The position numbers and the translations under genes are program-made. A stretch of DNA of 49,799 nt, taken from a virus. Taxonomy: Duplodnaviria > Caudoviricetes. The first letter of the stretch is position 1, and each line of letters begins with the position of its first letter. The notes beneath the pieces are model-generated. The model was not told the DNA's origin. It made no database searches and was given only the letters and a program-made list of their open reading frames with translations. The stretch is taken from positions 1-49,799 of IMG/VR virus record IMGVR_UViG_3300004806_000004. One strand, 5' to 3'. This document shows, in pieces, positions 2,857 through 47,177 of this stretch.

Positions 2857-2915
2857 ATTAGTGGTGAAAGGAAGTGGTAGTGTATAGGAATTGGACCTAT
2901 ACACTACCGGTTGAA

Positions 2916-3419: not shown

Positions 3420-3457
3420 TAGTTTAATTTATTGGTTAAATGTTAATGATTATTTGA

Positions 3458-4783: not shown

Positions 4784-4939
4784 AGGAGTTTATTGTGCTA
4801 ATAGAGAGGTAACTTACTCTCAGATTAAGGGGTGTTTAAAACCGTTAAACACTCAAACACGTTGTTGTATGCCCTTACAACTAACATTAGAGGCAGGTTG
4901 CCATATGCCCTTATGACTTATTTGAGGCGAGTACTTGAT

Positions 4940-4955
4940 AGCAAGGTTCATGCCA
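4940..4955 (-). promoter_or_regulatory. sigma54 -24/-12 promoter for the capsid operon
   Basis: Minus strand reads (T)TGGCATGAACCTTGCT(A), i.e. GG-N10-GC. Intergenic and facing the capsid gene. Confidence 0.85.
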
Positions 4956-4969
4956 AGTGTCAGTTAACG

Positions 4970-11658: not shown

Positions 11659-11829
11659 TTAACTTGTTTTGTGTCTTGATTCATAGTCTATTTTATGTGC
11701 TTGTTTTAGTGTCTCGCGAATCTCCCCTAACCTACGTCTCACCATAGGTGTCGCCCTCGCTCCCAGCCTCACTATCATATCCCTCTCGCTCCTCAGTCTT
11801 TCATATTCATCTGCGGTTAGGATTCGCAT
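11659..11829 (-). CDS. Small basic hypothetical protein, first gene of the packaging operon
   Basis: ATG at 11829 (MRILTADEYERL) lies just downstream of the sigma54 promoter at 11846-11861. Confidence 0.5.
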   Translation of the reverse strand: MRILTADEYERLRSERDMIVRLGARATPMVRRRLGEIRETLKQAHKIDYESRHKTS

Positions 11830-11845
11830 AGTCGTATATCGATAT

Positions 11846-11861
11846 AGCAACAATTGTGCCA
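11846..11861 (-). promoter_or_regulatory. sigma54 -24/-12 promoter for the terminase/portal operon
   Basis: Minus strand reads (T)TGGCACAATTGTTGCT(A), at the head of the minus-strand arm. Confidence 0.85.
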
Positions 11862-12059
11862 ACTGTCGCGCAGCGAAATATAAAGGGTTTATATTGCACA
11901 TCCGCTTATTGATTTTGTAAATTTTCTGAGAGAGGTATAGTTGCGATGAGCCTTCGACCTTCTGGTTTTCCATTAGCCAATCTAATATCCCTTGGCTATC
12001 ATTAGCTCTACTGAACAAGTGAAGCTACTATTAGCTGCTCTATCATTAGATATGGTTAA

Positions 12060-12590
12060 TAATCGCTCCTATCATTATGCCAGCTGAATAAGGGTAATAC
12101 ATTAGAGTATATAATGGTACATATAATGACCGGGCTAGTCGTATATCAGATTGATATAACAGACCCCTTATTAGTATATGTATAACCTCGTTATCTCTTT
12201 TTCCCCAAAAATTGAAAATTATATTAGATAATATAATAGCTAATAATAATAATAACTAATATAGTATAAATATGTATATACTAATAACATGGATGGTGTA
12301 TTGGGGGAGATATAAGGGGATATATGATATACGACTATGATGGTAGATTATAGGCTAGTAAGCGGGATTGGCTAATTATCAGGTGATAATGTGATTATCA
12401 GGAGATAAATGGGCGTGAAAGGTTGGATTATCACGTGATAAATGATTGTGTCCTATTATGGGACGTATATTTAACGATAAAACATTGGGGAATCCAATAA
12501 TGGGACAGTAGGTGTCAAGGAATGGGACAGTTGGGAATTGTGGAAATGAGCTTTATCGTTATTCATTGGCAAATACGCATATTGGGACGT
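12060..12590. other. AT-rich non-coding control region (candidate origin and/or genome end)
   Basis: No ORFs in the track, a very AT-rich tract at ~12205-12290, palindromes and TGGGAC repeats, between the divergent arms. Confidence 0.55.
12375..12442. promoter_or_regulatory. Three operator/enhancer-like palindromes ATTATCA-NNN-GATAA
   Basis: ATTATCAGGTGATAAT (12375), ATTATCAGGAGATAAA (12394), ATTATCACGTGATAAA (12427). Confidence 0.65.
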
Positions 12591-12606
12591 TGGCATGGTG
12601 GGTGCT
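12591..12606 (+). promoter_or_regulatory. sigma54 -24/-12 promoter at the head of the early arm
   Basis: (T)TGGCATGGTGGGTGCT(A), GG-N10-GC, upstream of the first + strand gene. Confidence 0.7.
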
Positions 12607-15140: not shown

Positions 15141-15184
15141 ACAATACAATCCCGTTATCGATATCGTGCTTACGTCCTATCCGT

Positions 15185-15200
15185 TGGCACGATTTTTGCT
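15185..15200 (+). promoter_or_regulatory. sigma54 -24/-12 promoter (consensus match)
   Basis: (T)TGGCACGATTTTTGCT matches TGGCACG-N4-TTGCW exactly and is intergenic. Confidence 0.9.
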
Positions 15201-15888: not shown

Positions 15889-16227
15889 ATGACTAAAGAT
15901 CAAATCAAAATCGCCTGCGCCAAGCTGGATGGTTGGGATGCCATGCCATCAAACCCGCCCAGGCCTTTAGGCTTTGGCGCTGCCAATGAGAAGCCTGAAT
16001 GGTGGTTTACACATCAGTTGCCCAGCTACACTTCATCCTACGACGCCATCATCCCGTTGATTCAGAAGCAGTTCAAGGATGATAACATTTCCATCAGTGA
16101 ATGGTATTACAACCTGCAAGTAGCGACTGGCCTTGTCACTCGCCACGAACTGTCCATCAAACCCGCCCCTCTCCAACTCTGCGAAGCGTTGCTGAGGGCA
16201 ACCAATAATTACAAGGAAAAGAAATGA
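15889..16227 (+). CDS. Phage ABA-sandwich-like protein (putative)
   Basis: LPSYTSSYDAII and APLQLCEALL patterns resemble this small phage family. Confidence 0.45.
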   Translation: MTKDQIKIACAKLDGWDAMPSNPPRPLGFGAANEKPEWWFTHQLPSYTSSYDAIIPLIQKQFKDDNISISEWYYNLQVATGLVTRHELSIKPAPLQLCEALLRATNNYKEKK

Positions 16228-16898
16228 ACTTTAAAGAACTACAAGAAAAAATCGGAACGCAAATTAAATCAGACTGGCGGCAATCGTCTGGCGGTGGGTG
16301 GATTCACAAGTCGGCCAAAATCGACAAGGAATCAAACATCATCGAAAACGCAATCGTTTGGGGCAGCGTGTACGGAAATGCTCGTGTGTATGGCGATGCT
16401 CAGGTGTACGACAACGCTCAGGTGTACGGAAATTCTCAGGTGTATGATGATGCTTGGGTGTACGGAAATTCTCAGGTATCCGGAAATGCTCAGGTATCCG
16501 GAAATGCTCGTTTATCCGGAAATGCTCAGGTATCCGGAAATGCTTGGGTGTACGGAAATTCTCAGGTGTACGACAACGCTCAGGTGTATGGCGATGCTCA
16601 GGTATCCGGAAATGCTTGGGTGTATGGCGATGCTCAGGTATCCGGAAATGCTCAGGTATCCGGAAATGCTCGTGTGTATGGTGATGCTTGGGTTAAACCC
16701 GTTCTGTTTCTCATGGATTCACGCGGCCACGGCGCAACAAATTGCAAATATGGCCGGCTTAAAATTGGATGCGAAGAACACACATTCAAGGAATGGGATG
16801 AACGATTTGATGCCATCGCCCGAAAACACAATCTGAACGATGCGGAAAAAGTCGAGTACCGCGCAATAGTTGAACTCTTTACCAAAATTGGAAAATGA
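16224..16898 (+). CDS. Hexapeptide-repeat (left-handed beta-helix-like) protein
   Basis: About 18 tandem V[YS][GD][ND][AS][QRW] repeats, followed by a KIGCEEHT C-terminal domain. Confidence 0.85.
   Translation: MNFKELQEKIGTQIKSDWRQSSGGGWIHKSAKIDKESNIIENAIVWGSVYGNARVYGDAQVYDNAQVYGNSQVYDDAWVYGNSQVSGNAQVSGNARLSGNAQVSGNAWVYGNSQVYDNAQVYGDAQVSGNAWVYGDAQVSGNAQVSGNARVYGDAWVKPVLFLMDSRGHGATNCKYGRLKIGCEEHTFKEWDERFDAIARKHNLNDAEKVEYRAIVELFTKIGK
16368..16694 (+). repeat. Coding 18-bp tandem repeat
   Basis: Units such as GTATCCGGAAATGCTCAG and GTGTATGGCGATGCTCAG are repeated in frame. Confidence 0.85.
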
Positions 16899-17299: not shown

Positions 17300-17309
17300 T
17301 GAATACCAT

Positions 17310-17325
17310 TGGCACGATTCGTGCT
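17310..17325 (+). promoter_or_regulatory. sigma54 -24/-12 promoter for the helicase/ligase/activator unit
   Basis: (T)TGGCACGATTCGTGCT(A), 10 nt after the upstream stop codon. Confidence 0.85.
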
Positions 17326-17485: not shown

Positions 17486-18058
17486 ATGAGCAACCATAAT
17501 ACACACCCCCTCGCGCACGCCCTCACCATCAGCCGTAACGGCATCAACGGAGTCTTGAAGATCTTCGTCGGTAAGAAAGGTGCTTGGGCTGAGCGTCCGT
17601 ATCAAGCGTTTCAGGTTGAAGCTGATGCTGATTCCGTCGCCATCACCGATGACAAAGCGTTCATCGACTCCCTCACGTTCATCGGTAAGACGAACGTCAA
17701 GAACTTCCTGAACGTTATCTGCAAGCGCTTCGGTCAGGACTTCGTTGAAGACGCCACTGGTGAAGATGGTATTTTCAGCGTTGATAAGTTCTGCAAGTAC
17801 TGGAGCGATCTGAAGTCCAGTGCGCTGAAGCTGTCTGAGTTGCAGGAAGCTATCCTCGATGGCCAGAAGGACTACATGAACTTCATTGCTACGGAGTTCA
17901 CGGCTGGTCTGACGTCTGGCAATCCTGAACTGATTAAACAGGCTCAGGAGAAACGTGAACGCATGGATCGCAACCTCAACGCTCTCCGTGCTGAATGGGA
18001 AGAGCGCAAGGCTCGCCGTTCCAAAGAAGCCGCTGCGGAAACTGTGACTGCAGTCTAA
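17486..18058 (+). CDS. Hypothetical protein with C-terminal coiled coil
   Basis: 190 aa with an A/C-rich leader and a downstream hairpin. Probably highly expressed. Confidence 0.8.
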   Translation: MSNHNTHPLAHALTISRNGINGVLKIFVGKKGAWAERPYQAFQVEADADSVAITDDKAFIDSLTFIGKTNVKNFLNVICKRFGQDFVEDATGEDGIFSVDKFCKYWSDLKSSALKLSELQEAILDGQKDYMNFIATEFTAGLTSGNPELIKQAQEKRERMDRNLNALRAEWEERKARRSKEAAAETVTAV

Positions 18059-18090
18059 GCTGTAGCCAACACTTGTCGGTGGTCCTAAAC

Positions 18091-18131
18091 TAGGGTAGGG
18101 TGGAGAGAATGACAATCTCCGCTCTACCCTA
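18091..18131 (+). terminator. 16-bp RNA hairpin (terminator, attenuator or processing site)
   Basis: TAGGGTAGGGTGGAGA/TCTCCGCTCTACCCTA pairs fully with two G-U, followed by an AT-rich tail. Confidence 0.65.
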
Positions 18132-18141
18132 AATTATTTAT

Positions 18142-18612
18142 ATGAATAAACCAGAAACAACACTTGTAACATTACCTTTAGATGATCTAATAAACTCTAT
18201 ATTAGGAACAGAATTAGATGGTCTTGAGTGCGTGTATGTTACACCGTTAGTAGCTCAGATACTTAACGGAGTAATGGAGAGCGTAGGATACAGACGGGCG
18301 TTGATAAAGTTTGAAGATTTCGACGGTGAATTGCTCGACCGCCCATTACTCTGGAACAGACGTTCGTATGATCTTGAACGAGATTTAGCTTATGCTAGAC
18401 GATCATACAAACACAAGACTCGCATCGCGAGTATGATACGGTCGCGTAATCTAGATTTGATCGTAGCAGCGATCAAGAAACAAACTGGTATGACAGACAA
18501 GCAAGCTGGATTGTTGGCAGATAAACTGTTTAAAGATTCAGCTACGGCGGCACTTGTTGCGAAGGAAGCTTTTGGGGTGGAGAAACTAATCGAGAAAGAA
18601 GAAGAACTATGA
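18142..18612 (+). CDS. Hypothetical protein
   Basis: 156-aa ORF, ATGA-coupled to the next gene. Confidence 0.7.
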   Translation: MNKPETTLVTLPLDDLINSILGTELDGLECVYVTPLVAQILNGVMESVGYRRALIKFEDFDGELLDRPLLWNRRSYDLERDLAYARRSYKHKTRIASMIRSRNLDLIVAAIKKQTGMTDKQAGLLADKLFKDSATAALVAKEAFGVEKLIEKEEEL

Positions 18613-18791
18613 AGATTAAACCAATCACAGTTGATGGCATTACCTACAATAAGTTTTGGGTAGGCGGCTTGCAGCAGCCATTATTAGCTGTTAGGGATGA
18701 ATTGTTGGCACAAGGATTACTTCCATTTGCCGCAGCTTTATCAGAGATAAATGTAATCATGGAGGACTACAAGGAAAGGCTTGAATCATGA
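18609..18791 (+). CDS. Small hypothetical protein
   Basis: ATGA overlaps at both ends. Confidence 0.6.
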   Translation: MKIKPITVDGITYNKFWVGGLQQPLLAVRDELLAQGLLPFAAALSEINVIMEDYKERLES

Positions 18792-20998
18792 CAGACAAAG
18801 AATTAGCAAAGTTCGAAAAGCAGCAACGATTTATTGTACAGAAGTTGTGCAATAAAATTAAGATGGCGTTCTCATTTAAACAGATTACTACTTGGCGAGA
18901 ACTGTACGTATATACTCACGGTGGGAATGAACAGTACATTAACGATAACTACAAAGGTCCTGAACTGACTACCGCTATTACCAAACAAGATGTAGATAAA
19001 TGGTGTGAAAAACTGTTCGCTGACCTAGATAAAGAGCAAGCAGCTAAACGTGCAGAGCCTCCGTCAGTACCGACTGCCATAATCCAAGAGGTCATCACAC
19101 CCTCAAAGGCGCCCAGTGTGACCGACACAACTGTTGTAACCACACAGCCGACACCTATAGAAACAACCGTTGCCAACAAAGCTCGTTCCGAAGAAGAATC
19201 TAACTACGGTCTAATACCATCACCAAATGAAAAAGCATTCCTCTACTGGTTCCAAAAGAAAGCAATCGCGGAAGCGATGCATAAAATCACAGTCGACAGA
19301 GTGTCAGCTCTTCTTATCATCGCAGGAACTGGAACTGGTAAGACATTCATTGATGCAGCTATCAAACGTCGACTCATTGACTCAGGATATCACAATGGTA
19401 AATCTTATGGTCTATCGCAGTACCTTACGATTACACGATCGACTGTTGTCGAACAGACAAAACGGGTCGGTGAAAAGAAATTCAACCTCAAGCACCCGAG
19501 TGACAATGAGGTGATTAACATCGAACAGTTACGCTCCCGCGCTGGTGCAATGTGGGTCAAGAGTGAACAGAAGATTATCAACGGCGAAGAGGTAACTGAA
19601 TGGAAGTGGCATCCGATGTTGAATCCAGTAGTGATAGCATTGGATGAGTGTCAAGCTGTGAAGAACGAAGATAGCACACAACACAAGATCATGTGTGCGT
19701 TCTCTTCCGTACCGAACACACTACAAATCTATATCTCAGCTACTCCATTCACCCGAGTATCAGAAGCGAAAGCTTTCTGTCTAGCAACTAAGATGGACAT
19801 ATCGAAATATGGATTTCCATCTGGAACGAGATTAGACGCATCTAATTGGCAAACATTTGCTGCTATCATTGCAGGAGGTACAGCACCACATGAATATAAT
19901 GAAGCGGCGATTGGTCGCCTCATGGATGCCATCGAACCCTATACAGTACGCGTGAAGGGTGTGAGGTGGCAGTTCAATGCTCACAATAGGGTGGAAGTTA
20001 TTCCATTCCAATCAGAAGCTGCGAGGAAAGAATACGCTGATGCTTGGGAGAAATATCTGATCAAGAAAGCTCGACTAGAAGAATCAGTAACCGATAACCC
20101 ACGGTTCCAAGCGATGATTGAACTGATGATGTTCCTCACAGCAGCTGAGTATTGTAAGCGTGATATCTTTGCTGAACGTATGTACAATAATGTACAGGAT
20201 GGATACGCATCTGTGCTAGGAGTCAAGAATAAGAAGACTGTAATATCGGTAGTCAAACTCTTGATAGAAGAATATGGTGTGTCGCGAGACGATATCAGCA
20301 TCGTATGGGGAGGAGGTCAAACCGCTCTCAACGCGAAACAGAAAGCTAAGTTGCAACTGATGAATAGCCCCGAGGCTCTAGCTGCGTTAGAGGCATCTGG
20401 GATAAGTATGGAAGACTTACAACTCGATGAAGTTGAAGCGAAAGAGTTGGAGGACTTGCCTAAGGAATGGAGGTTGGGAGTACAGTCGAAGGAAGATAGA
20501 CAGCGTGAGATTGATCGGTTTCAATCTGGTAAATCACGCTACGCAATCTTCACATACAAAGCAGGTGGAGTTGGATTGTCATTACATCATTGTGATGAAC
20601 TCTCTCCGTTCAAATGTCGGCGTAAGGAATCTGGATTTGCAGTAGAAGAAGACATCCCGAACGTGCCTATTCGTCAGAGGAAAGTTACCATCGGCCCCAC
20701 GTGGAGTCCGATCGAGTTGATCCAAGCGATGGGACGAGTGCCTAGGTTGACGTCATTGAGTGACACAGATCAAGAATTCTTGTACTATAAAGGCACTGTA
20801 GAAGAAGAGCAAGCGCATGTTGTATCACATCGATTGAAGTGTGTGAGACAGGTGGTACGGCAGAATGAGAACTGGATGACTCTACTCCGCGAACCAAACA
20901 AAGCTAAAGAGTTAGTGAAAGAGCTGTTAGACAAACCGATCAGCGAAGACAACCAAGATGAAGGAGAAATTGAATATGACAATGAATCGGAAGACTAA
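18788..20998 (+). CDS. Superfamily 2 (DExx) helicase
   Basis: YWFQ Q-motif, AGTGTGKT, IALDECQ, ISATP, AGGVGLSL and QAMGRVPR. Confidence 0.9.
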   Translation: MTDKELAKFEKQQRFIVQKLCNKIKMAFSFKQITTWRELYVYTHGGNEQYINDNYKGPELTTAITKQDVDKWCEKLFADLDKEQAAKRAEPPSVPTAIIQEVITPSKAPSVTDTTVVTTQPTPIETTVANKARSEEESNYGLIPSPNEKAFLYWFQKKAIAEAMHKITVDRVSALLIIAGTGTGKTFIDAAIKRRLIDSGYHNGKSYGLSQYLTITRSTVVEQTKRVGEKKFNLKHPSDNEVINIEQLRSRAGAMWVKSEQKIINGEEVTEWKWHPMLNPVVIALDECQAVKNEDSTQHKIMCAFSSVPNTLQIYISATPFTRVSEAKAFCLATKMDISKYGFPSGTRLDASNWQTFAAIIAGGTAPHEYNEAAIGRLMDAIEPYTVRVKGVRWQFNAHNRVEVIPFQSEAARKEYADAWEKYLIKKARLEESVTDNPRFQAMIELMMFLTAAEYCKRDIFAERMYNNVQDGYASVLGVKNKKTVISVVKLLIEEYGVSRDDISIVWGGGQTALNAKQKAKLQLMNSPEALAALEASGISMEDLQLDEVEAKELEDLPKEWRLGVQSKEDRQREIDRFQSGKSRYAIFTYKAGGVGLSLHHCDELSPFKCRRKESGFAVEEDIPNVPIRQRKVTIGPTWSPIELIQAMGRVPRLTSLSDTDQEFLYYKGTVEEEQAHVVSHRLKCVRQVVRQNENWMTLLREPNKAKELVKELLDKPISEDNQDEGEIEYDNESED

Positions 20999-21929
20999 AT
21001 TCAAACCAATGTTAGCTGCACCATTACTACCTGCTCATGCAGAACATACTGATGCTAACATCCTATCAGCAATGAAAACCCTTCGCTATCCAGTTTATGC
21101 AACAGTTAAGATGGATGGCATACGAGCGTTGAGACTCAACGGGACATTACTATCTCGTACTCTGAAAGAGATACCGAACAAATCAATACGTAAACGATCA
21201 CTCAAATTACCCGGTGGATTTGATATGGAACTATGTGCTGAGGGGTTAAGGTATGATGAAGTTGAATCAATCGTCATGAGCAAAAAGCACAATGACTCAC
21301 ATAAGATTCAATTCTATATACTTGATTGGTACGGAATATTAGACCAGCATGGAGTTGAAGCTAATTATAGAATCCGTCAACAACAGATAGACGGATGGAT
21401 AGGATCATTCGGTTCTCGTATGGATGGGATGCCAGTATGTTTTTATATTTGTAATGACTACCTCAGTTTGTTTGAGTTCTTCCTTGAATCAGAGCGACGT
21501 GGTGATGAGGGCATCTGTTTCCGTACACCTGACTCACCGTATAAGTTTGGTCGCTCTACTCTTCGTGAACAGTGGTTGATTAAACTCTGTCGCTATCACA
21601 GGACTGAATGTGTGATAACAGGGTTTGAGGAACAGATGGAGAATGATAATGCAGAAGAATATAACTCCGTCGGTAAGATGGATCGATCATCGTGTAAGGA
21701 TAATCTAATTCCAAAGGATACACTGGGCGCCTTTATCGTTACCCATAACCTCTGGGGAACCATGCGAGTAGGTACTGGAGTAGGGCTAACTGATAAGTTG
21801 AGGAAAGAGATTTGGGAAAATAGGGATCGCTATCATGGGAAAGTAATCACAGTGAAGTTCAAACCCCACGGCTCGAAAGATAAACCACGTTCGCCAATCT
21901 ATGTTGGCTTTAGAAAGGATGGAATATAA
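20976..21929 (+). CDS. ATP-dependent DNA ligase
   Basis: KPMLA, KMDGIR adenylation motif, FDMEL, EGICFR, YKFGRS, LIKL, and an OB-fold region with GTG and PRSP. Confidence 0.93.
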   Translation: MTMNRKTKFKPMLAAPLLPAHAEHTDANILSAMKTLRYPVYATVKMDGIRALRLNGTLLSRTLKEIPNKSIRKRSLKLPGGFDMELCAEGLRYDEVESIVMSKKHNDSHKIQFYILDWYGILDQHGVEANYRIRQQQIDGWIGSFGSRMDGMPVCFYICNDYLSLFEFFLESERRGDEGICFRTPDSPYKFGRSTLREQWLIKLCRYHRTECVITGFEEQMENDNAEEYNSVGKMDRSSCKDNLIPKDTLGAFIVTHNLWGTMRVGTGVGLTDKLRKEIWENRDRYHGKVITVKFKPHGSKDKPRSPIYVGFRKDGI

Positions 21930-22273
21930 TGCACCCTGACCAACGCAACCCAAGGATAGTATTCGATTTCAGTAAAGCTCAATGGTGTGAGTTCGGGTAT
22001 GAGAATCAGTACGGACATACATCACCCACGCTACCCTATGGCCCAACCATTCGTGGATGTAGGTTCAAAGAAGATGCAGTTATGTTCGGTGGGACTGAGA
22101 CTCATCTCGACTATGCAAAGCGACAGGGCATACTTGATACATGGCGACTGAAGATTAAGCTCACCTTCGCATCTAATCATAGACTGACATTCTATGGTGA
22201 GAAAGCTGTGAGTGTCTGGAGTGAATGGTCAGCGAAACAATTCGGTGGTAAGAAAACAAAGAAAGGTAAATAA
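21929..22273 (+). CDS. Hypothetical protein
   Basis: 114-aa ORF coupled to the ligase stop and ending 4 nt before the activator start. Confidence 0.65.
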   Translation: MHPDQRNPRIVFDFSKAQWCEFGYENQYGHTSPTLPYGPTIRGCRFKEDAVMFGGTETHLDYAKRQGILDTWRLKIKLTFASNHRLTFYGEKAVSVWSEWSAKQFGGKKTKKGK

Positions 22274-22277
22274 CTAT

Positions 22278-23186
22278 ATGGCAAATGACAAAGTGCAGAA
22301 GGTTCCGACAGAGGCAGAGTTACGTCTGTTCCTCAAGAACGGAATGAAAGATCTAGTTCAGCAAGTGTTAGACATCGCACCGGACTTACGCTTGAAGCTA
22401 GAGAAGAACGGTGGTAGGTTTCCAGACGAAGGCGAGTGGGTACTAGTAGAACTGCTCTCCGGTGCATCAGCATGGCTTAAGAAGTTCATCACTTGCGATA
22501 GTGACATGATCGAGATGAAAGAAGATGTCAAGAAGCTTGCTGTGTGTAATGATGAGGTACTGATCACTGGTGAGACTGGTACTGGGAAAGAACTAATCGC
22601 TCGGGCCTTACATGGTGATAGGGAGGGCGACTTCAAACGAATCAACTGTGGAGCAATGCCAAGTGAACTAATTGAATCAGAACTGTTCGGTCACGTTAAA
22701 GGTGCGTTCACTGGAGCAGACAATAACAAAACTGGATTACTAGTTGCTGCGAAAGATGGTACAATGTTCCTCGATGAGGTAGGGGATCTGCCATACACAT
22801 TGCAAGCGAAACTACTCAACGCATTACAGCCTATTGATGGTAAGCGATTCATCCGTCCGGTAGGGTCAGTGAATGAAGTTGAGATCAACTGTCGCATAGT
22901 CGCAGCGACACATAAAGATTTGCGTCAGATGTTTGAGTGTAATCAATTCAGGAAAGATCTTTATGCTCGACTGTCCACATTCGAGATTCATATCTCCCCT
23001 CTATCGAAGCGAGTAGGAGATGTTGAGCCTATCGTGCGTGAACTCTGTGCCCAGATGGGTGTAGATTACATCAAAGTAATGGATGGCATTAGTGCCAAGT
23101 CACTCAACAAGACTCTCGACCTATCGTTCAATGTACGTTCACTTGAACAGATGGTGAAGCGGTACAGAGTCTTAGGCAAGCTATAA
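22278..23186 (+). CDS. sigma54-dependent transcriptional activator (bEBP AAA+ domain) lacking receiver and HTH domains
   Basis: GETGTGKE, INCG, ESELFGHVKGAFTGA, GTMFLDEVGDLP, RIVAATHKDL, FRKDLYARL and FNVRSLE. The protein ends about 12 aa after sensor II. Confidence 0.95.
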   Translation: MANDKVQKVPTEAELRLFLKNGMKDLVQQVLDIAPDLRLKLEKNGGRFPDEGEWVLVELLSGASAWLKKFITCDSDMIEMKEDVKKLAVCNDEVLITGETGTGKELIARALHGDREGDFKRINCGAMPSELIESELFGHVKGAFTGADNNKTGLLVAAKDGTMFLDEVGDLPYTLQAKLLNALQPIDGKRFIRPVGSVNEVEINCRIVAATHKDLRQMFECNQFRKDLYARLSTFEIHISPLSKRVGDVEPIVRELCAQMGVDYIKVMDGISAKSLNKTLDLSFNVRSLEQMVKRYRVLGKL

Positions 23187-23212
23187 CGGTAAAGCTAATA
23201 AGATGTTATACT

Positions 23213-23228
23213 TGGCACAAGACCTGCT
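23213..23228 (+). promoter_or_regulatory. sigma54 -24/-12 promoter for the recombination/replication unit
   Basis: (T)TGGCACAAGACCTGCT(A), 26 nt after the activator stop. Confidence 0.85.
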
Positions 23229-23324
23229 ATCAATATCTTCCAACAATTTGAGTAGGTGAGTCTCAAAGCGACCACTGTAAAAACTGGTAGTGAAATTGAC
23301 AGAGCCTACTCAATCCAATTTAAT

Positions 23325-24166: not shown

Positions 24167-25110
24167 GCAGCAAACTTACAATCAACTTAGACTCAACAGT
24201 ATTGAGTCATTCGAAATGTATTCGTGCATTGAAGTGGAAAGTATTGGATGGATACACAGAGCCAGTACAATCATCTGCGATCATCTATGGAGTAGCGGTA
24301 CATAAGTATATTGATACTATGTTCAGGACTAAATCCAACTATGAAGCAGCGAAAGAGGCGGCGATTAAAGCGTTCAATATTCCTAAGCAGGGGAAGAAAC
24401 GTATGGAGCATCTGGAAGATGAACGTCATATGCTGACTACGTCAATCATGACATGGGAGAACTGGGTTAAGAAAGACAATGACTATAAAGTGTTGCAAGA
24501 TCCCGCTGGTCAACCGATGACTGAGTTCACATTCAGTATTAAGTTCTGGGAAGATGAAACTCTCTGTGTGAATCTATGTGGCACTATGGATAGTATCGGT
24601 AAGATGAATGGCGGCATTTACACTATCAGAGATTGGAAGACCACATCTAGCTGGGATCCGAAAGAATACTTCTCTCAATATGCTATGAGCAAACAGCTGC
24701 GTATTTATGCGCTGGCGCTGCGCACTATCGGTAGGTTGCATCCTGACTCATTGATCGGAGCTGTGATTAAAGATGGAGTAATTGGTGCGGTGATCGATGG
24801 GATATTTATCAAACCCAATGTGACGGAGAACAAATGGCTGAGGTCGGAAGGATTTGCGTACCGCGACAGGGAGCTAGATGAGATGGAGAATCTGCTAATT
24901 GATAAGTGTGAAGAACTATCTCGCGCGGTTAAGTTTAACAGGTTCCCCAAACAAGGATTACTCAATGAGGCTTGCCTAGGCAAGTGGGGTAAGTGTATGT
25001 TCTGGAACGCCTGTGGAGTTAGTGATCCTAAGGTGGAAGAGATCGTGTTGAACAGAGATCTGGTGAAGAAGACATTTGATCCATTGAAATATAATGAGGT
25101 GGTTGAATGA
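24163..25110 (+). CDS. PD-(D/E)XK exonuclease, Cas4/RecB-like
   Basis: GVAVH, GTMD..IRDWKT and QLRIYA motifs. One N-terminal Cys plus three C-terminal Cys (Fe-S-like). Confidence 0.85.
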   Translation: MSSKLTINLDSTVLSHSKCIRALKWKVLDGYTEPVQSSAIIYGVAVHKYIDTMFRTKSNYEAAKEAAIKAFNIPKQGKKRMEHLEDERHMLTTSIMTWENWVKKDNDYKVLQDPAGQPMTEFTFSIKFWEDETLCVNLCGTMDSIGKMNGGIYTIRDWKTTSSWDPKEYFSQYAMSKQLRIYALALRTIGRLHPDSLIGAVIKDGVIGAVIDGIFIKPNVTENKWLRSEGFAYRDRELDEMENLLIDKCEELSRAVKFNRFPKQGLLNEACLGKWGKCMFWNACGVSDPKVEEIVLNRDLVKKTFDPLKYNEVVE

Positions 25111-25625
25111 ACCTCATAGGTATAGCAGGCAAGAAACGATCAGGTAAGAATACCGTCGCAGACATAATCAAATCCCTCACAACCACCGAAGTAGTTCAAC
25201 ACGCCTTCGCTGATGCGTTGAAAGATGAGGTGGCGAAAGCTTGTGGTGTGTCGCGTGACTTCATCGAGAAGAACAAGCCAGCATTTAGATTGATCTTACA
25301 AGGCTGGGGCACAGAATTCCGTCGTAGACTATGCACACCAGATTATTGGGAGATTCGTCTGGCGAAGAAGATCCTATCTGCGCCCGATGAATGTATTGCA
25401 ATAGTCACCGACGTTAGGTTTCCATCAGAAGCGGATCTGATTAAACGATGTGGAGGAACGTTGGTATGTGTGAAGCGACCGATGCTAGATGATACCGACA
25501 GCCACGCGTCAGAGACATCACTCGACGACTACAAACATTTCGATTATGTGATCGAAAACAACAGTACATTAAACAACCTAAAAGAAGATGTGAAGCGACT
25601 ACTTCACAACATGAAAATCAAATGA
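25107..25625 (+). CDS. Deoxynucleoside monophosphate kinase
   Basis: GKKRSGKNT, FADALK, LQGWGTE, DVRFPSE and HASE. Confidence 0.9.
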   Translation: MNLIGIAGKKRSGKNTVADIIKSLTTTEVVQHAFADALKDEVAKACGVSRDFIEKNKPAFRLILQGWGTEFRRRLCTPDYWEIRLAKKILSAPDECIAIVTDVRFPSEADLIKRCGGTLVCVKRPMLDDTDSHASETSLDDYKHFDYVIENNSTLNNLKEDVKRLLHNMKIK

Positions 25626-25635
25626 AAGGAAATAT

Positions 25636-25803
25636 ATGAAATGCAAAATGTGCGCAGAAAATCCTGAGAATAATGTGGATAAATTGCCAGAGGTTAATAA
25701 TACTTTTGAGCTTGTTTGTAAAGAAACTGGAGAAACAAAAACGGTAACACTGTGTGTACCTCATGGGCTACGATTGATTAATGCTATCATTAACGCAATA
25801 TGA
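25636..25803 (+). CDS. Small Zn-finger-like protein (55 aa, not in the ORF track)
   Basis: Read manually: MKCKMC...LCVPH...NAI-stop, with an ATGA overlap into the next gene. Confidence 0.6.
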   Translation: MKCKMCAENPENNVDKLPEVNNTFELVCKETGETKTVTLCVPHGLRLINAIINAI

Positions 25804-27601: not shown

Positions 27602-27639
27602 GGCGGGATAGCTCTGTGACAAGGGTTGTCCCGCCTTTT
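27602..27639 (+). terminator. Intrinsic terminator
   Basis: GGCGGGATAGCTCT/AGGGTTGTCCCGCC stem followed by TTTT. Confidence 0.7.
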
Positions 27640-27651
27640 GAGTTATCAATT

Positions 27652-29175
27652 ATGCACCTAAGAACACGCCCTCGACTGACCTATTGTGGCCTGACTATCA
27701 TCATGTCGAACCCATCTCGGTTCGATAAACTCCGTCTGCTCTCCGCCAATGGTGGAGCAATGTTCAATGACTTCTGCTTACGACCAGAACTGAATCTAAT
27801 GCAATGTGATGTGCGTGTGATGGAAGATGAATCCCCATTACTCGATGGGACTAAATGCATACTACTGCTAGGTGAAGCGGCCATGTGGAAGTATGGATTG
27901 AACGTATCTCTCAACACGCTTAACGAACTACGTGGGTCAGTTCTCACTACCAAGTGGGACATCCCAGCCATAGCAACCTATCTCCCTCAAGAAGCAACAG
28001 ATCAAATCAATCATGAAGCAACACACAACCCACTCTGTAAATCGCGACAAGCAGAACTGGAAGCGAAAGAAGATGAAGACGAAGGCAACGTCAAAGCACA
28101 CGGCAACACCAAAAGAATCAACTACTCCTTCTGGATGCGCCGTGATGTCTGGAAGTGTAAACAGATTCTTCAAGGTAAGTTTCAACAAAGACATTCGGAC
28201 AGCCCGGTCTATCATATCTACCCATCTGCGGATGAAGTAATAAAACTATTAACCAATACAAAGAATGAAATTCTTGACTTTGATATGGAGACAGACATCG
28301 AGGCCCTCAATCTCCAATGCTTTGCGTTTAGCTTTGGCAACTCTCATGACGTCTATTGTGTGCCTATACTCGACCATACTTATAAAACGGCTTACTCAGT
28401 TTGCCATAAGATACTTCGAGCTTTAGCCATTGCATGTAGGGACAATACAGTAGTAGCACACAATGGTTCGTGTTTCGATTTTCGTGTATTGGCATTGCGG
28501 TATCGCATACCTGTATATAAATGCTATGACACACTGATCGCAATGCACAGATGTTTCCCTGATGTAGAGAAGTCATTGGGGCATTGTGTGAGCTACTGGA
28601 CATGGGAACCATTTCATAAAGATCAAGACTCTCACGGATATAGGACTCATGAGCAGATGATGGACAGGATGAGGTATTGCGCGAAGGATGTTTGGACTAT
28701 GAAGTTAGTTCGACAAGCTATAACAGATTACGCCAAAACTATCCCAGGGTTAACCAAGTCTATTGATGATGCAATGAGGTGTATCCGTCCATACCTAACC
28801 TCTACCATCATAGGAGTTCGGGTAGATGAGCAGAAAGTTAACGATATCGTTAATGAGAATGATAGATTGATGGTGCAGTACAATAGGATGGCAGAGATAT
28901 TGATTGGAAAAGATTCTCTGACACTGATGAAGAATGGATCGAAGTCTATGTTCGCTGGATCGAACAAACAATGCGCACGTTACTTCCATGAACTAATGGG
29001 GTATCCAGTGCAAGGTAAAACTGATGCAGGTGCACCAGCGTTGGGGAAACATTCACTCTATAAATTGGCACTGAAATACACTAACCCAGTGATTCAATTA
29101 GTGTGTATATATAGGTCAACGCAGAAAGAAACCTCTCGTCTACGGTTCACTCCATGGGAAGGGAAACTTGTATGA
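27652..29175 (+). CDS. polA: Family A DNA polymerase, N-terminal part (UDG-like domain, 3'-5' exonuclease, thumb)
   Basis: UDG-fold-like ILLLGEAA...LRGSV...IATYLP, ExoI DFDMET, ExoII HNGSCFD, ExoIII YCAKD, and thumb elements GVRVD and GSNKQ. Confidence 0.8.
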   Translation: MHLRTRPRLTYCGLTIIMSNPSRFDKLRLLSANGGAMFNDFCLRPELNLMQCDVRVMEDESPLLDGTKCILLLGEAAMWKYGLNVSLNTLNELRGSVLTTKWDIPAIATYLPQEATDQINHEATHNPLCKSRQAELEAKEDEDEGNVKAHGNTKRINYSFWMRRDVWKCKQILQGKFQQRHSDSPVYHIYPSADEVIKLLTNTKNEILDFDMETDIEALNLQCFAFSFGNSHDVYCVPILDHTYKTAYSVCHKILRALAIACRDNTVVAHNGSCFDFRVLALRYRIPVYKCYDTLIAMHRCFPDVEKSLGHCVSYWTWEPFHKDQDSHGYRTHEQMMDRMRYCAKDVWTMKLVRQAITDYAKTIPGLTKSIDDAMRCIRPYLTSTIIGVRVDEQKVNDIVNENDRLMVQYNRMAEILIGKDSLTLMKNGSKSMFAGSNKQCARYFHELMGYPVQGKTDAGAPALGKHSLYKLALKYTNPVIQLVCIYRSTQKETSRLRFTPWEGKLV

Positions 29176-30194
29176 GAGATACTTGTGAGTGGGCGATCCA
29201 TGGTACGAAAACCTTTCGCCTCGGGTCGAGGAAGATCAATAAAATCTACGGTGGAAATCTTCAGAACATTGAGAAATCAATGCGAGAAGTCTACATACCA
29301 GACGAAGATAAAACGTTAGTTCAGACAGACCAATCTGGCGCCGAGGCATTAATCGTTGCTTATCTATGTGAGGCAGCAGCCTATAGACAGCTGTTCATCC
29401 ATGGAGTTAAACCACACGTTTATGTTGCACTACACTTGTTCCGTGATATCTGGAAACGTAAAGCCAGAGAACATTCTCTTAGCTCTGAGCTTAGTATTGA
29501 TGCTCTATGCGCTGCACCAATCCAAGCATTGAAGTCATTCCCAGGATGGCGAGATCTTGATGGATTGATTAAGGATTCCGATAACTGGAGCATGAGCGAA
29601 CGGTATTATTACCTAGCCAAACAGACTTGCCATAGTGCGAACTACGGCATCGAGGCTAATGCATTTCGCATGAACATCTTGACGAAGTCTGGTGGTAAGA
29701 TTAACATTTCTCAAGATGAGGCGAGTAGGTTCTTGCAGGTGTATCGTGGGCTATTCCCAGAGATCCCTGATTGGAATAGACGAGTGACGAAACAAGTGAA
29801 AGAGAATAGGATGCTGTTCAATCTACATGGCCATCCCTACACTATCACTGGACATGAGATCACTGACACTCAGATGAAGGAACACATAGCATGGATTCCT
29901 CAATCGACAGTAGGTATGATAACCAATATCGCTTACGCTAATATGGCAGAGTTTATCTATAACAATAAGTTGGACTGGGACTTGCTAACAAATTGCCACG
30001 ATTCTTATTTACTCCAATGTCCGATCAACGAGACGTTAGAGTGTGCGAAGAAATGTAAAGAGTTCATGGAGCAGGAATTTGAATCTCCCTTCGACGGCGT
30101 TAGATTCCGAATGAAATCAGAAACACAAGTTGGCTTCAACTGGGCGCCAGCTAAAGAAAAGAATCCTATGGGATTGAAAGAAATTAAGATATGA
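29172..30194 (+). CDS. polA: Family A DNA polymerase, palm/fingers part
   Basis: GTKTFRLGS, NLQNI, motif A DQSGAE, motif B KQTCHSANYG, PQSTV and motif C CHDS. Starts at an ATGA overlap. Confidence 0.9.
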   Translation: MRDTCEWAIHGTKTFRLGSRKINKIYGGNLQNIEKSMREVYIPDEDKTLVQTDQSGAEALIVAYLCEAAAYRQLFIHGVKPHVYVALHLFRDIWKRKAREHSLSSELSIDALCAAPIQALKSFPGWRDLDGLIKDSDNWSMSERYYYLAKQTCHSANYGIEANAFRMNILTKSGGKINISQDEASRFLQVYRGLFPEIPDWNRRVTKQVKENRMLFNLHGHPYTITGHEITDTQMKEHIAWIPQSTVGMITNIAYANMAEFIYNNKLDWDLLTNCHDSYLLQCPINETLECAKKCKEFMEQEFESPFDGVRFRMKSETQVGFNWAPAKEKNPMGLKEIKI

Positions 30195-34700: not shown

Positions 34701-37700
34701 AAAACTAGTAGATGGAACTAACGTCTTCGCATGCTCCCCAAAACTAGCACGCTCACCCTTACTCCCAGTGAGTTCTTCTGCAATCTTGGGCAAAGACTTA
34801 TCATAGTGCATTCCCATGCCACCTTCAAAAGGTGCACGCGTCATTATGATTTGCTTCCCATCTGAAGTTAGTTCGAACTTAGCTCCATGTTCTTCATAAG
34901 CTTTTGTGAGTTTCTCCAACAACACTTGAGGAGCTTTAGGCTTGTCAAAGTCAAGCCTATCTTCATCCTTCATGAAATATTCTTTTGCCTGATAGTTGGC
35001 CCGGTCTACATACTTACGCGCTTGATAAATATCCTTATCATGCTCCTCACTTATCATCGCTGTCTCTGCATCACTTATCGCTATCTTCGTAGCACCCTCT
35101 TGGCGAGCGTGTTCGATAGCAGCTTTGAGTGCGAGGCGTTCGTAGTGCGGGAGGAGGGGGTCTTGTAGCTTATGCTCCGTGATCCGAGACTCAGGATAAT
35201 GTTTATCTACATAATCTTTGATAGCAGCCTCTTTGGTGGGAAACACAGTTTCGCCACCATACTGTTTTACATAGTATCCTTGATGTTCTCCTTCGAACTC
35301 GTAAGGCACAACCTTATCAGCAACACTATTGATATCAACCTTGTGGTCAGCAACTTCTTGGCGTAAACGCTGCGCCCAATCACTCTGCACTTCAATCACA
35401 TGAAACACCTTCTCCCCTGCTGGCGTAGTCTCCATATACCCACGCAAGAAGCCGAGGGTGTTCGGAGGGAAGCCGTGGGAGGAGGGGAATTGTTCGCCAC
35501 GCTCAGCTGCGCTAGTGGTGCGCATATTGCCTACAGTCTTGTCTTTTGTGTAAGCACCAATCTTCAACGGCTTCACCACCGCAATCTCCACATATCCCGG
35601 CATATCATGTTCCGCTTTAGGGGCTACGAAGGACCAGTGGGCGGACGGAATATCTTTAACCGATTCTTTATCTAAAGTCTTTTTCAACTCCATCAATCGT
35701 TGACGGTCGGCTTGTTGTTCAGGTGTCCAGTTATACGAAGAGTCGTGTGGGTCATGTAACGAATCAAATTTATGATACAACGCATTATACTCCCTACGCT
35801 CTGGTGACAATGCCCCCTCCCCAAACTTCTTCACCTCCACCTTCGGAGTATGCTCTTCAAACCATTTAATAGCATCATCCTTACTGATGTATCTATTCTG
35901 GAAATGTTCAATTACTCCTTGACTCTTATACATCTCTTGTTCAGTCGGCGACAGCTTGTTGAAGATCGTGCCCAACAGTTGCGTACCGTGAAACGCACCA
36001 GACGTGTTAGGCTTAATCCCCAATTTCCCATCACGAATAAGATCCGCAGCGTTAGTGCTAAATGCACGATCTCCATCAGTGAGTGATTGATGAACATATC
36101 GACGAACAGCATCCTCATTAAATGAAGGAGAGTTCTGTTTCAGATAGTTCACGAACGCCTCAACAGCTTCATGAATCTTACCACCAGCGGTGATAATACC
36201 CTTAGCCATTTCCAACCCAGTATCCCACACTTTAGGCAACAAACCAAACGCATGGAGTTGATCAGGACTCTGATTGGATTTCATCTTGTCTAACACTCCA
36301 TGCATATTATCAACCCACGATTTGTTACCAGTAAGAGGATTAACTACTGGCGGGTTTTGCTTTGTAACTTTAGTCTTGCCAAATGTCTCAGACAGAATTT
36401 GATCCTTCTGTTCTTTGGTAAGTGTAGGATCATTAAGCAAAGCCTCTCTGACAGATGGATTAGATAGATCTTGCTCATTAAACATCCTACTAGGATTCTT
36501 TCCCTGAGCAATCATGTGCTCATTAACCCAGTCAGGTAACTTAGGATTTACTTTTTGATTCGTTTTAGTTTCTTTACTTGATGTGTCTCCGGCAGACTGT
36601 TGTAATCCACCGGACTCTCCTTCTGCCACTGGTGGAGTAGCTGAGGGTGTTTGACTGCGAACATCTTCCACTGAGCCTTTGATTTGATTGGCATAATTTT
36701 TAGATATAGTTAGTAGACGTTGAGCATGCTCATCAGATAGATTGGGCATGTCTTCCCTTAGAATGTTCTTAACTGCATTAACATTGCCAGCCTTTTTATC
36801 GGTTAACAATTTAGCTAAGGGAATCTTATTCTGTTCGATGAAAGCTTCGTCAGATAATTTATTCCAAGACTTCATGAAGGCTTCCGATACCTTTTCAGAT
36901 GATGGGAGCTTATCTAACTCATCATGCGGTATTTCATGTACTGTGCCGGATTGATCCAATACCTTAACACTAGTCTGTCCATTGTCAACTACTGTCCCTT
37001 TCAAAGGTTCATCTTCATCGGAATGAATCTCAACTTCATCTCCGTGTTGGAGAGTCCGTGCATACTGCTCAATTTCATCTTCCTGATTAGCCTTCATCTC
37101 GTTGTCTTCCAAGCGTAAATTGTGCGTGACCTGATTACCAGTCAGCAGTGCCTGTAAATCATCGTCAGCTTTCCCTAGAGACTCTCTGTGTAGGAAATCC
37201 CGCTTCTTATCGGGATCCATTTTTAATGCTCTGTCACGGATAGTAAGTATCCGTTCACGCTCGACAGGGTCAATGTCATTAGATGGCACTGGTTGAATAC
37301 TGTCTAGTTTACTTTTGAATAATTTAGAAATTGATTTATTGCCTAATTCGTATTCACCATTAGGATTCTTGTTGTTAAATTGGCTTACGATATCGTTAAC
37401 GTCAGTAGAAGGTTCAGCAGCCTGTTGCTCAGGGCGAATACCGCTACTAGACGATGTAACTTCAGCAGCAGGCTCATTCTTAACCTTCCCGCGATTCATC
37501 AATCTCTCTGCCCACTTAGCTTGACCACTGAACAGAGCCCCACCTGCAACTTGCGCGCCTAGTTCAGTTCCAGACGGAAGGCCCTGCCCAGTGGCTAAAC
37601 CGATACCAGTGTTAATAGCCGGATTAACACCAGCGTTCATGATGGTATGAACTAAAGCTTCCTTAGCAGCGGGAGACATTGCCCCCTTACCGATCAAGCC

Positions 37701-39593: not shown

Positions 39594-40199
39594 TTAATCG
39601 GCATAACCGAAAGCATCTTCTGTTTCAGCGGGTTTACCGATGGTTGATGTCTTAGCTTGATCAACTAATTTCTGAGCATAACCATCAGCGCTCTTGCCGC
39701 CTGTTCCATTCCCAGCACCGATAGTCGCGAAAGCAGGGTTAGCTCCAGATGATTGAGAGTTGATACCAGCATGAATTTGTGCTTCAGTAGTATGGTTGCC
39801 TTGTCCGACTATTGTGTCTTTAAAGTCATCTTTCATTTTATCAAACGCTGCACCCAATCGACCACGCCGGAGCGTCGATCCGTCAGCAGAAGCACCAGCA
39901 TCCTGACTCTGTTTTGCCTGTCCCTGAGATTGGGCAACACTCTGACCGATGAGCTGAGAGTTGTCTTCTATTGTCCCAGGAGCCAGTCCAGCTGCACTAG
40001 ACTGTAAGTGATTCATACCGTGTTGAGTGAGGGGAGCGAATCCATCTGCATCACGCTGACCATAATGAACTCCAGCCTCAAAGCCGAAAGGATTAGATAG
40101 CTGGGCGAGCTTATTCGCTGCAACCATCTGTCCAGGAGAAGCATCTGCTCCACCCTGATATGGTGACATTGCATTAAGATAATCAAGCGTGGATGCCAT
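39594..40199 (-). CDS. Internal virion protein (putative)
   Basis: Ala/Gly/Gln-rich. Called by position. Confidence 0.55.
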   Translation of the reverse strand: MASTLDYLNAMSPYQGGADASPGQMVAANKLAQLSNPFGFEAGVHYGQRDADGFAPLTQHGMNHLQSSAAGLAPGTIEDNSQLIGQSVAQSQGQAKQSQDAGASADGSTLRRGRLGAAFDKMKDDFKDTIVGQGNHTTEAQIHAGINSQSSGANPAFATIGAGNGTGGKSADGYAQKLVDQAKTSTIGKPAETEDAFGYAD

Positions 40200-41337
40200 A
40201 ACGAGTAGTTAGAGTTTTGACCATCTTGGTGTAGGCGAGAGTGGCGTAGGAGGCTTTGCCATTACGTATATAACCGATACAACGTTGGACAACTCCCCAA
40301 ATGTATTCTAGCTCCTCAGGATTGTTCTGAATACATTGAGTGATCGCCGGTGCGAGACGGTAGTACTCTTCCACAATATGCTGTGGGACGTGTTTGTCAC
40401 GAAACTTACGGAGAGTCTGTAACTCGTCACAATCATCCGGTAGACCCTTATAGTCACACGCAGCGGTGGTGAGGAAGCATCCAGCAGATGCATTACCAGA
40501 CGATGTTGTACCTTTCGACGCCGCGCCAATACCAGCTAACTGATTACCAAACGATGATGCGAATGAGAATGGTGTAGACGTAGTAGAGTTAGCCTGTGTG
40601 GGATTGAATTGAGCTAATCCGAAGTTATTGGCTGTATTACCAGCCCCAGCAGCAGTAGCCACAGGATTGAATGTAGCATTCTGTGCTCCTGAAACATTAG
40701 CAGCCGTTCCTAGAGCTGAACCTAACATCTGACGTTTAGTGTTCAGTGCATTGCCGAAATTCATTGCATTTGATACAGCATTAGTAGCGTTATCTACTCC
40801 CAGATTGCCTGTGGCGTAGTTAGATTGATTGAGCGAACGCTCAGCCGCAGCCTGTTCACCACCACTCAAACCATTGAGATTGATGGAGTTCACCAAATTC
40901 GCTGCTTGACCATTGGCAGCAGCCTGTGCTGGATTGTATTGATTAGCTAGCGCAGCTGCTTGTTGATCAACAGCTGCTCCACCATTAGCAAGAAGACCAG
41001 CCTGACTGTTGGCCTGCATATTCGCCAATGCTGCCCCAGCCTGTTGATAGTTACCTGATTGACCAGCGAGCTGATTCAGTACTGATTGGGTATAAATAGG
41101 GTTAGCTCCATACGCACTAGCGGCCATTGACTGGGTAATCCCTGGACCAGTATTAGCTACAATCTGTGATGTCGGAGATACAGCCTGAGCATACAACGCA
41201 AGCATATCTTGTGGAGATAGCTGAGGGGTGGTGGACCCAGAAGATTCTCCAGCACCGCCTGAGTAGTATCGGGTAGCTAATAGATGAGGCCTAAAAGGAA
41301 GATTGTTCTCAAATTCACTTGCGTAAAAGTTTCTCAT
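40183..41337 (-). CDS. Pilot/ejection protein with C-terminal CFI-box-CTERM-like domain
   Basis: Ala/Asn/Gln/Gly-rich body followed by CFLTTAAC...ELQTLRKFRD...YYRLAP. Start at 41337 is preferred. Confidence 0.7.
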   Translation of the reverse strand: MRNFYASEFENNLPFRPHLLATRYYSGGAGESSGSTTPQLSPQDMLALYAQAVSPTSQIVANTGPGITQSMAASAYGANPIYTQSVLNQLAGQSGNYQQAGAALANMQANSQAGLLANGGAAVDQQAAALANQYNPAQAAANGQAANLVNSINLNGLSGGEQAAAERSLNQSNYATGNLGVDNATNAVSNAMNFGNALNTKRQMLGSALGTAANVSGAQNATFNPVATAAGAGNTANNFGLAQFNPTQANSTTSTPFSFASSFGNQLAGIGAASKGTTSSGNASAGCFLTTAACDYKGLPDDCDELQTLRKFRDKHVPQHIVEEYYRLAPAITQCIQNNPEELEYIWGVVQRCIGYIRNGKASYATLAYTKMVKTLTTRYGIHA

Positions 41338-41674
41338 AGATTTTATCGGTATTAGGGTTTTTGTAGATCCCATTCTTCATCCAACGCAATTTCGCTTTGG
41401 GCCAACGCTCTTTCGCAATCTTAGCAAAAGCTCGTAAATTTTCAATGTTCATCGCCAAGTTTTCTGTGATAAACAACTCCTGCTTAGGTTCATCAAAGTG
41501 AGCAATAATCATGCCAGAGATATTGCCTGTATCGTTAATGGAAACCAACAATAGTCCATGTTCGTATGCCTCACGTATGAGATACGCAACTTGTAGAGGG
41601 TTCTGATTTAGGAAACACTTCCCGCCCTTGTTGCGTAAGACAAAGTTAACTACGTCGCCTAGTGATAGGTTCAT
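41315..41674 (-). CDS. Small tail-module protein, possibly GNAT-fold (T7 gp13-like position)
   Basis: 119 aa from the ATG at 41674, with the alpha/beta pattern LLVSINDTGNISGMII. Located between tail and ejection genes. Confidence 0.45.
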   Translation of the reverse strand: MNLSLGDVVNFVLRNKGGKCFLNQNPLQVAYLIREAYEHGLLLVSINDTGNISGMIIAHFDEPKQELFITENLAMNIENLRAFAKIAKERWPKAKLRWMKNGIYKNPNTDKIYEKLLRK

Positions 41675-41678
41675 ATGC

Positions 41679-47152: not shown

Positions 47153-47168
47153 AGCAGTTTCTGTGCCA
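47153..47168 (-). promoter_or_regulatory. sigma54 -24/-12 promoter for the tail/ejection operon
   Basis: Minus strand reads (T)TGGCACAGAAACTGCT and occupies most of a 36-bp intergenic gap. Confidence 0.85.
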
Positions 47169-47177
47169 ACTATATCG

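Follow-up and report, generated by a model that had tools for sequence, protein, structure and literature searches.

Several phages redirect transcription to their own promoters by means of phage proteins, as is the case for gp28 of SPO1, gp55/gp45 and AsiA/MotA of T4, the RNA polymerase of T7 and the N/Q proteins of lambda. We know of none among the strategies of SPO1, T4, T7 and lambda that acts by ATP-driven remodelling of σ54 closed complexes. Among bacterial activators, FleT is chromosomal and flagellar, and works together with FleQ. The available text of PMC3162934 describes this protein, from Rhodobacter (Cereibacter) sphaeroides, as a σ54 activator devoid of signal and DNA-binding domains. 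The σ54 holoenzyme stays closed until an oligomer of a GAFTGA-bearing AAA+ activator remodels the complex, as set out in the available text of PMC7175178, whose Table 1 places FlgR of Helicobacter and CtcC of Chlamydia among the group 5 bEBPs, AAA+ activators without a DNA-binding domain; FlgR is termed enhancer-independent in the title of a reference. On the phage side, the accessible parts of the respective papers report one σ54-like promoter (P015) in Pseudomonas phage YuA, beside σ70-like and phage-specific ones (PMC10914365), and a putative σ54-like protein, gp2, in phage Q19 (HHpred E 0.67; PMC7693777).

The phage locus analysed here resembles each of these systems in part. Its activator resembles FleT in having no HTH, but has a short N-terminal domain of its own, and the phage genome contains no second activator, one strong PF00158 match being found per genome. 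FlgR and CtcC carry a receiver domain and need phosphorylation, whereas the phage protein has no Response_reg and an N-terminus of ~65 aa, and scores 154 bits against the FlgR model (cut-off 750). It lacks both the C-terminal HTH by which bEBP groups 1-4 (NtrC, XylR, NifA and PspF types) are recognised and the N-terminal receiver of group 5. YuA has a σ54-like promoter in common with the phage studied here, but no activator homologue from a Pseudomonas phage appears among the INPHARED matches listed; Q19 gp2 is a σ54-like candidate and not an activator. A phage-encoded σ54 activator was not found in full-text literature, a corpus lying mostly outside subscription papers and supplements, so that the first-pass annotation, which knew of no characterised phage with such a paired activator and promoter system, is borne out there. 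The molecular components are familiar ones; what appears not to have been described before is a phage lytic programme built from them.

The phage genome and its possible host

The window, that is, the whole stretch of DNA that was analysed, measures 49,799 nt and, with a terminal overlap of 90 nt, is circular and completely assembled; it represents a tailed phage whose family consists of uncultured bacterial viruses with genomes of ~50 kb. Pfam and PHROGs families are assigned to a large terminase, a helicase, a ligase, an exonuclease, Sak4, a primase-like protein and a holin, and the same scan of the window ORFs gives a weak match for the portal. The probable capsid protein (441 aa) has feature-level neighbours that are all viral, two clusters of which belong partly to capsid families. 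DNA polymerase A (27616-30194) is divided into two overlapping ORFs, as in many relatives, and is a single ORF of ~800 aa in others. The 736-aa helicase (18788-20998) corresponds in several relatives, among them L041, L046, L052 and L055, to two ORFs whose order is swapped.

Four further proteins are encoded at 6-881, 48101-48934, 40183-41373 and 16224-16898: a trypsin-like protein of secreted type, a peptidase of the papain family, a protein with a CFI-box-CTERM domain and a YdcK protein with beta-solenoid repeats. The trypsin-like protein has neighbours from Verrucomicrobiota, and the best cultured matches of the large terminase are terminases of Akkermansia phages (25-27%); together these give only hints of a host among the Verrucomicrobiota. 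A comparison of RpoN with 30 genomes, none of them from this phylum, identified no host.

No RNA polymerase or sigma factor was detected with Pfam and PHROGs among the 58 window ORFs, about three quarters of which have no family at all, in agreement with the first-pass annotation, which had recognised neither. The catalytic motif of DxDGD type is absent from all six frames of the window. Among 50 genomes of the family, Sigma70_r2 was found in none, and a T7-type polymerase also in none, the latter by a search that had no working positive control.

An HTH-less activator of σ54 type

The activator gene (22278..23186, plus strand) encodes a bEBP-type AAA+ ATPase of 302 aa, identified by Pfam, motifs and fold. 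Sigma54_activat (PF00158) matches residues 73-238 with E 4.8e-56 (189.5 bits against a cut-off of 20.2), and neither HTH_8 nor Response_reg gives a Pfam match at E<=0.01. The translation contains Walker A (GETGTGKE), ESELFG, GAFTGA, Walker B (FLDEVG), the R-finger region FRKDLYAR and sensor II (NVR). The first-pass annotation had described a 302-aa AAA+ protein with all bEBP motifs and an intact GAFTGA loop and had expected Sigma54_activat to be present and both HTH_8 and Response_reg absent, and the translation and the Pfam scan confirm it on both counts. The protein consists of an N-terminal domain of ~65 aa, the AAA+ core with GAFTGA and a helical lid, and ends 18 residues past sensor II. 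Its structural model (pLDDT 94.9) has only bEBPs as top matches (Z 23-28), NtrC4 being the best (Z 27.6, rmsd 1.7, 227 residues aligned) and the next family following at Z 15.9.

Besides the activator itself, the best 120 of 8000 scored in a homologue search over lengths of 166-529 comprise 119 relatives measuring 221-329 aa; HTH or receiver families are listed for none of them, and many lie on contigs of ~50 kb. Their tail past sensor II measures 16-48 residues in the 119 listed homologues, against mostly 79-210 in bacterial activators, a few receiver-type activators of Bacteroidota having tails near 31. The alignment of 60 relatives shows no or almost no variation in Walker A, the ELFG box, the GAFTGA Thr, Walker B, the arginine fingers and sensor II, and the acidic residue after the Walker A Lys lies in invariant columns. 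The loop could be scored in 117 of the 120 listed homologues and reads GAFTGA in 77 and GSFTGA in 20; tolerated GAFTGA variants are listed in the available text of PMC3162934. The protein is predicted to be an ATP-dependent opener of σ54 promoters.

In a quick-search tree, a branch with 97% SH-aLRT divides 59 phage activators from 82 bacterial-type rows; near-identical phage rows had been thinned from 76 to 61, and the outgroup, which includes one row (L300) whose genome is flagged as unpublished, came from 1/64 of GTDB. The phage activators may have a single origin. Host contamination was rejected as the source of the gene, which sits between overlapping phage genes and keeps the same synteny in relatives. 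A Bdellovibrionales locus (L294) considered as another HTH-less activator was also rejected, being a pilin-cluster gene at a contig end. A prophage scan over 1/64 of the genome set yielded bacterial activators only, and a scan of single-protein viral entries gave no match.

Sites of -24/-12 type at the heads of phage operons

The pattern TTGGCAY-N6-TGC occurs seven times in the window, where 0.25 matches are expected and none of 100 shuffles reaches seven; the motif had been fitted to these same sites in the first-pass annotation, so that probabilities within the window are optimistic and the relatives provide the independent test. A T follows TGC in all seven, and each other spacer length from 2 to 12 yields 0-1 matches. 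Chance origin of the motif was rejected on these numbers and on the spacer-6 specificity seen both in the window and in relatives. With GG at -24, GC at -12 and fixed spacing, the sites have the sequence features of σ54 promoters. All seven point toward the next gene, and six are intergenic.

Two sites face away from each other across a control region. The one at 11846..11862 (minus strand) heads the packaging operon, which comprises a 56-aa ORF, the probable small terminase, the large terminase, the portal and a probable scaffold; it lies in a TTG-started extension of ORF 11659-12018, upstream of the internal ATG at 11829 that opens the 56-aa frame. The divergent site at 12590..12606 (plus strand), with a G-rich spacer, is the first of the early/replication arm. 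Further along this arm, 15184..15200 (plus) heads small early ORFs, and 17309..17325 (plus) heads the operon 17486-23186 with helicase, ligase and activator. Only 25 nt past the activator stop, 23212..23228 (plus) heads the replication operon, which encodes the exonuclease, a dNMP kinase, Sak4, the split DNA polymerase A and the primase-like protein. Of the remaining two, 4940..4956 (minus) heads the probable major capsid gene (3458-4783) and the structural genes downstream, and 47153..47169 (minus) is located in a 36-nt gap before probable tail genes, with a predicted +1 just 1 nt before the ATG, so that the transcript would be leaderless if the site is used.

These coordinates match those of the first-pass annotation within 1 nt, and its seven correctly oriented TTGGCAY-N6-TGCT unit heads were all recovered. 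A PWM built from relatives adds two sites that this list lacks. One of them, a good eighth site with C at its first position (41501..41517, minus strand, score 20.7), falls within ORF 41315-41728 and precedes genes for probable internal virion proteins; the other, at 13890 (plus strand), is weaker. In the leader of the replication operon, positions 23247-23310 are predicted to fold into a stable multi-branch hairpin that is not obviously conserved in relatives.

Conservation of the sites across relatives

A scan of IMG/VR confirmed 291 stretches, 80 of which are listed; 78 of these represent phage loci, syntenic or fragmentary, and the other two (L056 and L078) carry long activators of bacterial type. 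Many loci are near-duplicates, so that the counts are not independent. The 80 listed loci contain 110 strict matches at spacer 6, against 2-8 at other spacers, and in whole-record counts over the 47 longest listed records sites are present in 47/47, with 317 matches against 24 for a reversed-pattern control. Of the 76 listed loci with a whole activator gene, 70 have a site in the 1.5 kb that come after it, 54 of these within 62 nt, and the remaining six have no strict site there. Among 58 distinct relatives, 51 have a sense site before the capsid-like gene and one has an antisense site; within 1.1 kb of the small-terminase homologue the corresponding figures are 24 and nine of 27. For the homologue of the gene at 17486 a site stands upstream in seven of eight relatives, and for that of 40183 in three of seven. 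The position of the 47153 site is not conserved, none of five relatives having a site before the same gene and others having one elsewhere in the tail region. Operon-internal genes are rarely preceded by a site (portal 1/66, exonuclease 0/91, activator 2/93). Site positions are conserved though the capsid-like proteins are only 27-35% identical.

Seven capsid genes lack a site, six of them from a single subclade in which the activator is nevertheless retained. In this subclade, typified by G053 (L104, L106, L107, L114, L115 and L274), no site lies within 300 nt of the capsid gene, and the first leader RNA unit, of the kind described below, overlaps the stop of the upstream gene.

Positions outside the search pattern are also biased, with T before TGG in 63%, a purine after TGGCAY in 91% and AT-rich sequence after GC, as in the σ54 consensus. 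The interval from -20 to +4 around the predicted transcription start is free of start codons in all 214 site-gene pairs, and of the 41 capsid-leader RNA units 22 have their first position at +2 to +5; this geometry fits σ54 start sites placed 11-13 nt past the GC. The first early sites have a spacer G fraction of 0.41, against 0.04-0.17 (14 sites), and are possibly a separate promoter class.

The orientation and geometry bear on whether the sites are promoters at all. They could instead be repressive or timing blocks formed by σ54, or be bound by a phage protein not recognised as such, with another form of polymerase transcribing the genes; the large share of window ORFs without a family and the uncontrolled T7-type search leave room for such a player. 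This explanation is highly improbable given the exact -24/-12 spacing, the 51:1 preference for the sense orientation and the start-site geometry, to which the intact activator, the presence of rpoN itself in relatives and the missing DxDGD-type motif can be added.

If the sites are promoters, the activator may act on them freely or be held close by. Over 282 non-redundant sites no position-fixed upstream motif of a shared enhancer was found; enriched 6-mers are diffuse, and a genome-specific box would escape this search. It has to be considered that the activator needs a DNA-bound partner or enhancer and is tethered by its N-terminal domain or by another phage protein, as FleT is by FleQ. The N-terminal ~65 residues are ordered in the model, forming two helices and a beta-hairpin, and are conserved among close relatives; a fold search with this domain, based on a weak single-sequence model, gave no match above Z 2.9. 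A 94-aa HTH-looking ORF, free of Pfam matches, lies two genes upstream of the activator in two relatives (G068 and G070), and tethering would spare host σ54 promoters and provide timing. The N-terminus is, however, neutral to acidic, with net charges from -6 to +2 across the 120 listed homologues, and shortened in part of the family, where the whole protein has only 246-257 aa, which together with the lack of a position-fixed motif makes tethering unlikely.

Pairing of activator and sites

The activator belongs to the core genes of the family: among 28 long records reached through the terminase or polymerase, PF00158 is present in 24, including 18/18 of those at least 90% complete. Since every near-complete relative has the gene, the family offers no close activator-free control for the association of gene and sites. 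The activator-free genomes that could be compared are distant or incomplete: three Akkermansia phages whose terminase is related but which lack the activator have 0, 0 and 1 sites, and a polymerase relative without activator (G072) has no PWM site. The two records with long bacterial-type activators have one and two sites, against four and two for the control.

An unrelated gut phage record, MT121960, contains an HTH-less activator-like gene (L359:22352-23263) and 0 sites in 41 kb, so that such a gene need not bring a regulon with it. Its product is an AAA+ protein with intact GAFTGA and a Gly-to-Asp variant of Walker A. The other INPHARED matches to the activator (60 of 64 listed) appear to be either host contigs entered as phages or fragments that lack annotation.

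MT121960 also speaks for a different division of labour, in which the sites are true σ54 promoters fired by host activators and the phage protein serves mainly to reprogram or jam host σ54 genes. An enhancer-free activator would indeed reach host promoters too, and YuA is an example of a σ54-like promoter (available text of PMC10914365) in a phage group, that of Pseudomonas, with no entry among the INPHARED activator matches listed. Host activators, however, normally need enhancers of their own, none of which is shared at the phage sites; moreover, the catalytic residues are invariant and not decayed, and gene and sites are retained together across the family. We consider firing by host activators quite improbable.

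A lineage with its own σ54

Three complete genomes (G068-G070) have the activator but only 1, 0 and 0 strict sites; in the usual places, the -12 element of their sites reads AGC or GGC. They are exactly the three of 50 genomes in which a σ54 DNA-binding domain was found. A full-length σ54 is encoded in each (24499-25788 in G068, 35469-36764 in G070 and 2730-4196 in G069), with 429-488 aa and the AID, core-binding and DNA-binding Pfam domains in 3/3; two of the proteins were scored against the RpoN model TIGR02395 and reach 286 and 322 bits (cut-off 277). The expectation of the first-pass annotation that the phage does without a sigma factor of its own stands for the window genome and for 47/50 relatives, but not for these three. 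As rpoN lies beside the activator in this sub-lineage, it ties the system to σ54 independently of the motif.

An IMG/VR scan for σ54 gave 23 rpoN loci (L360-L382), which correspond to about two independent events. In 20 of them rpoN is upstream of the helicase and the activator, directly behind a site, and in three it is in the replication operon. The HTH of the phage σ54 reads HETT, which is absent from all bacterial rows aligned. Fifteen rpoN-carrying records contain 48 RGC-type against three TGC-type sites. The reading of AGC as exclusive to the phage σ54 was nevertheless rejected, as 87 RGC-type matches occur in 47 rpoN-free genomes, among them six in G041 and one directly after the activator in G075. 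The first early site is of TGC type in seven of 14 rpoN loci examined, the other seven lacking a TGC-type site there, which hints at a hand-over from host to phage σ54.

Leader RNA and control region

The leader of the capsid gene contains two tandem pseudoknot-like RNA units (4864..4928, minus strand), the first starting from predicted +2. In each unit a short GCYWC stretch can pair with a G(G/A)GC loop whose closing stem covaries. Over 70 distinct units (window; L082-L158, L261 and L265) the stem has on average 4.8 pairs, against 2.7 with shuffled partners (maximum 3.2 of 500), and 41 of 51 capsid-gene leaders have 1-3 units. Rfam gave no match for them at E<=1. The units are a candidate translational operator.

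The AT-rich divergent control region (11863..12589, no strand assigned) contains short repeats and palindromes, namely three CTATCATTA repeats, three TTATCA/TGATAA palindromes, TGGGAC repeats and long inverted repeats, and may be an origin, a packaging end or a place for host-factor sites. A 14-nt element before the 12590 site, found at the same distance in G068, was rejected as a family-wide feature because it recurs only in the rpoN lineage.

Proposed model

We estimate at roughly 85% the probability that a phage of this kind, with an HTH-less activator and -24/-12 sites at its operon heads, transcribes its replication, packaging, capsid and tail genes by means of the host σ54 RNA polymerase, opened by its own activator. 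The first-pass annotation had proposed just such a lytic programme under host RpoN with a switch supplied by the phage, which gains support from the core gene, the conserved sites, the start geometry and the rpoN sub-lineage. According to this model, host σ54 holoenzyme, assuming that the host has rpoN, would sit closed on the phage sites; the phage ATPase would oligomerise, engage σ54 through GAFTGA and open the phage promoters. Because it has no HTH and no recognised sensor, and the sites have no shared upstream box, the activator would act without enhancer and probably constitutively, its amount being the switch.

The 17309 site heads a run of overlapping genes that ends in the activator, which would lead to positive feedback and amplification. 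As the activator gene lies behind σ54 sites, something else must start the cycle. The first round might depend on read-through from a host-type promoter, on a host activator or on packaged protein. The window has one 10/12 σ70-like site, at 13344 behind a hairpin, and σ70 early promoters are not enriched family-wide, with 36 in sense orientation against 42 in shuffles. One sub-lineage would supply σ54 itself. The broader proposition, that σ54 is the engine of the whole family, with a constitutive, enhancer-free activator as self-amplifying switch over replication, packaging and virion operons, rpoN captured in some lineages and drift at -12 possibly staging a hand-over, seems to us reasonably probable.

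Biological significance

If the model is true, these phages would take over transcription in a new way, through a form of the bacterial polymerase that is off until an ATPase opens it, and would represent a class of gene control apart from phage-owned polymerases, factors of the σ70 family and antiterminators. Infection would then be predicted to depend on host rpoN. The family provides hundreds of natural minimal activators together with their sites, with which enhancer-free action, specificity and timing become testable, and its rpoN-carrying lineage offers cognate sets of sigma factor, activator and promoter with a shifted -12 element. A compact one-gene switch would also be on offer for synthetic circuits.
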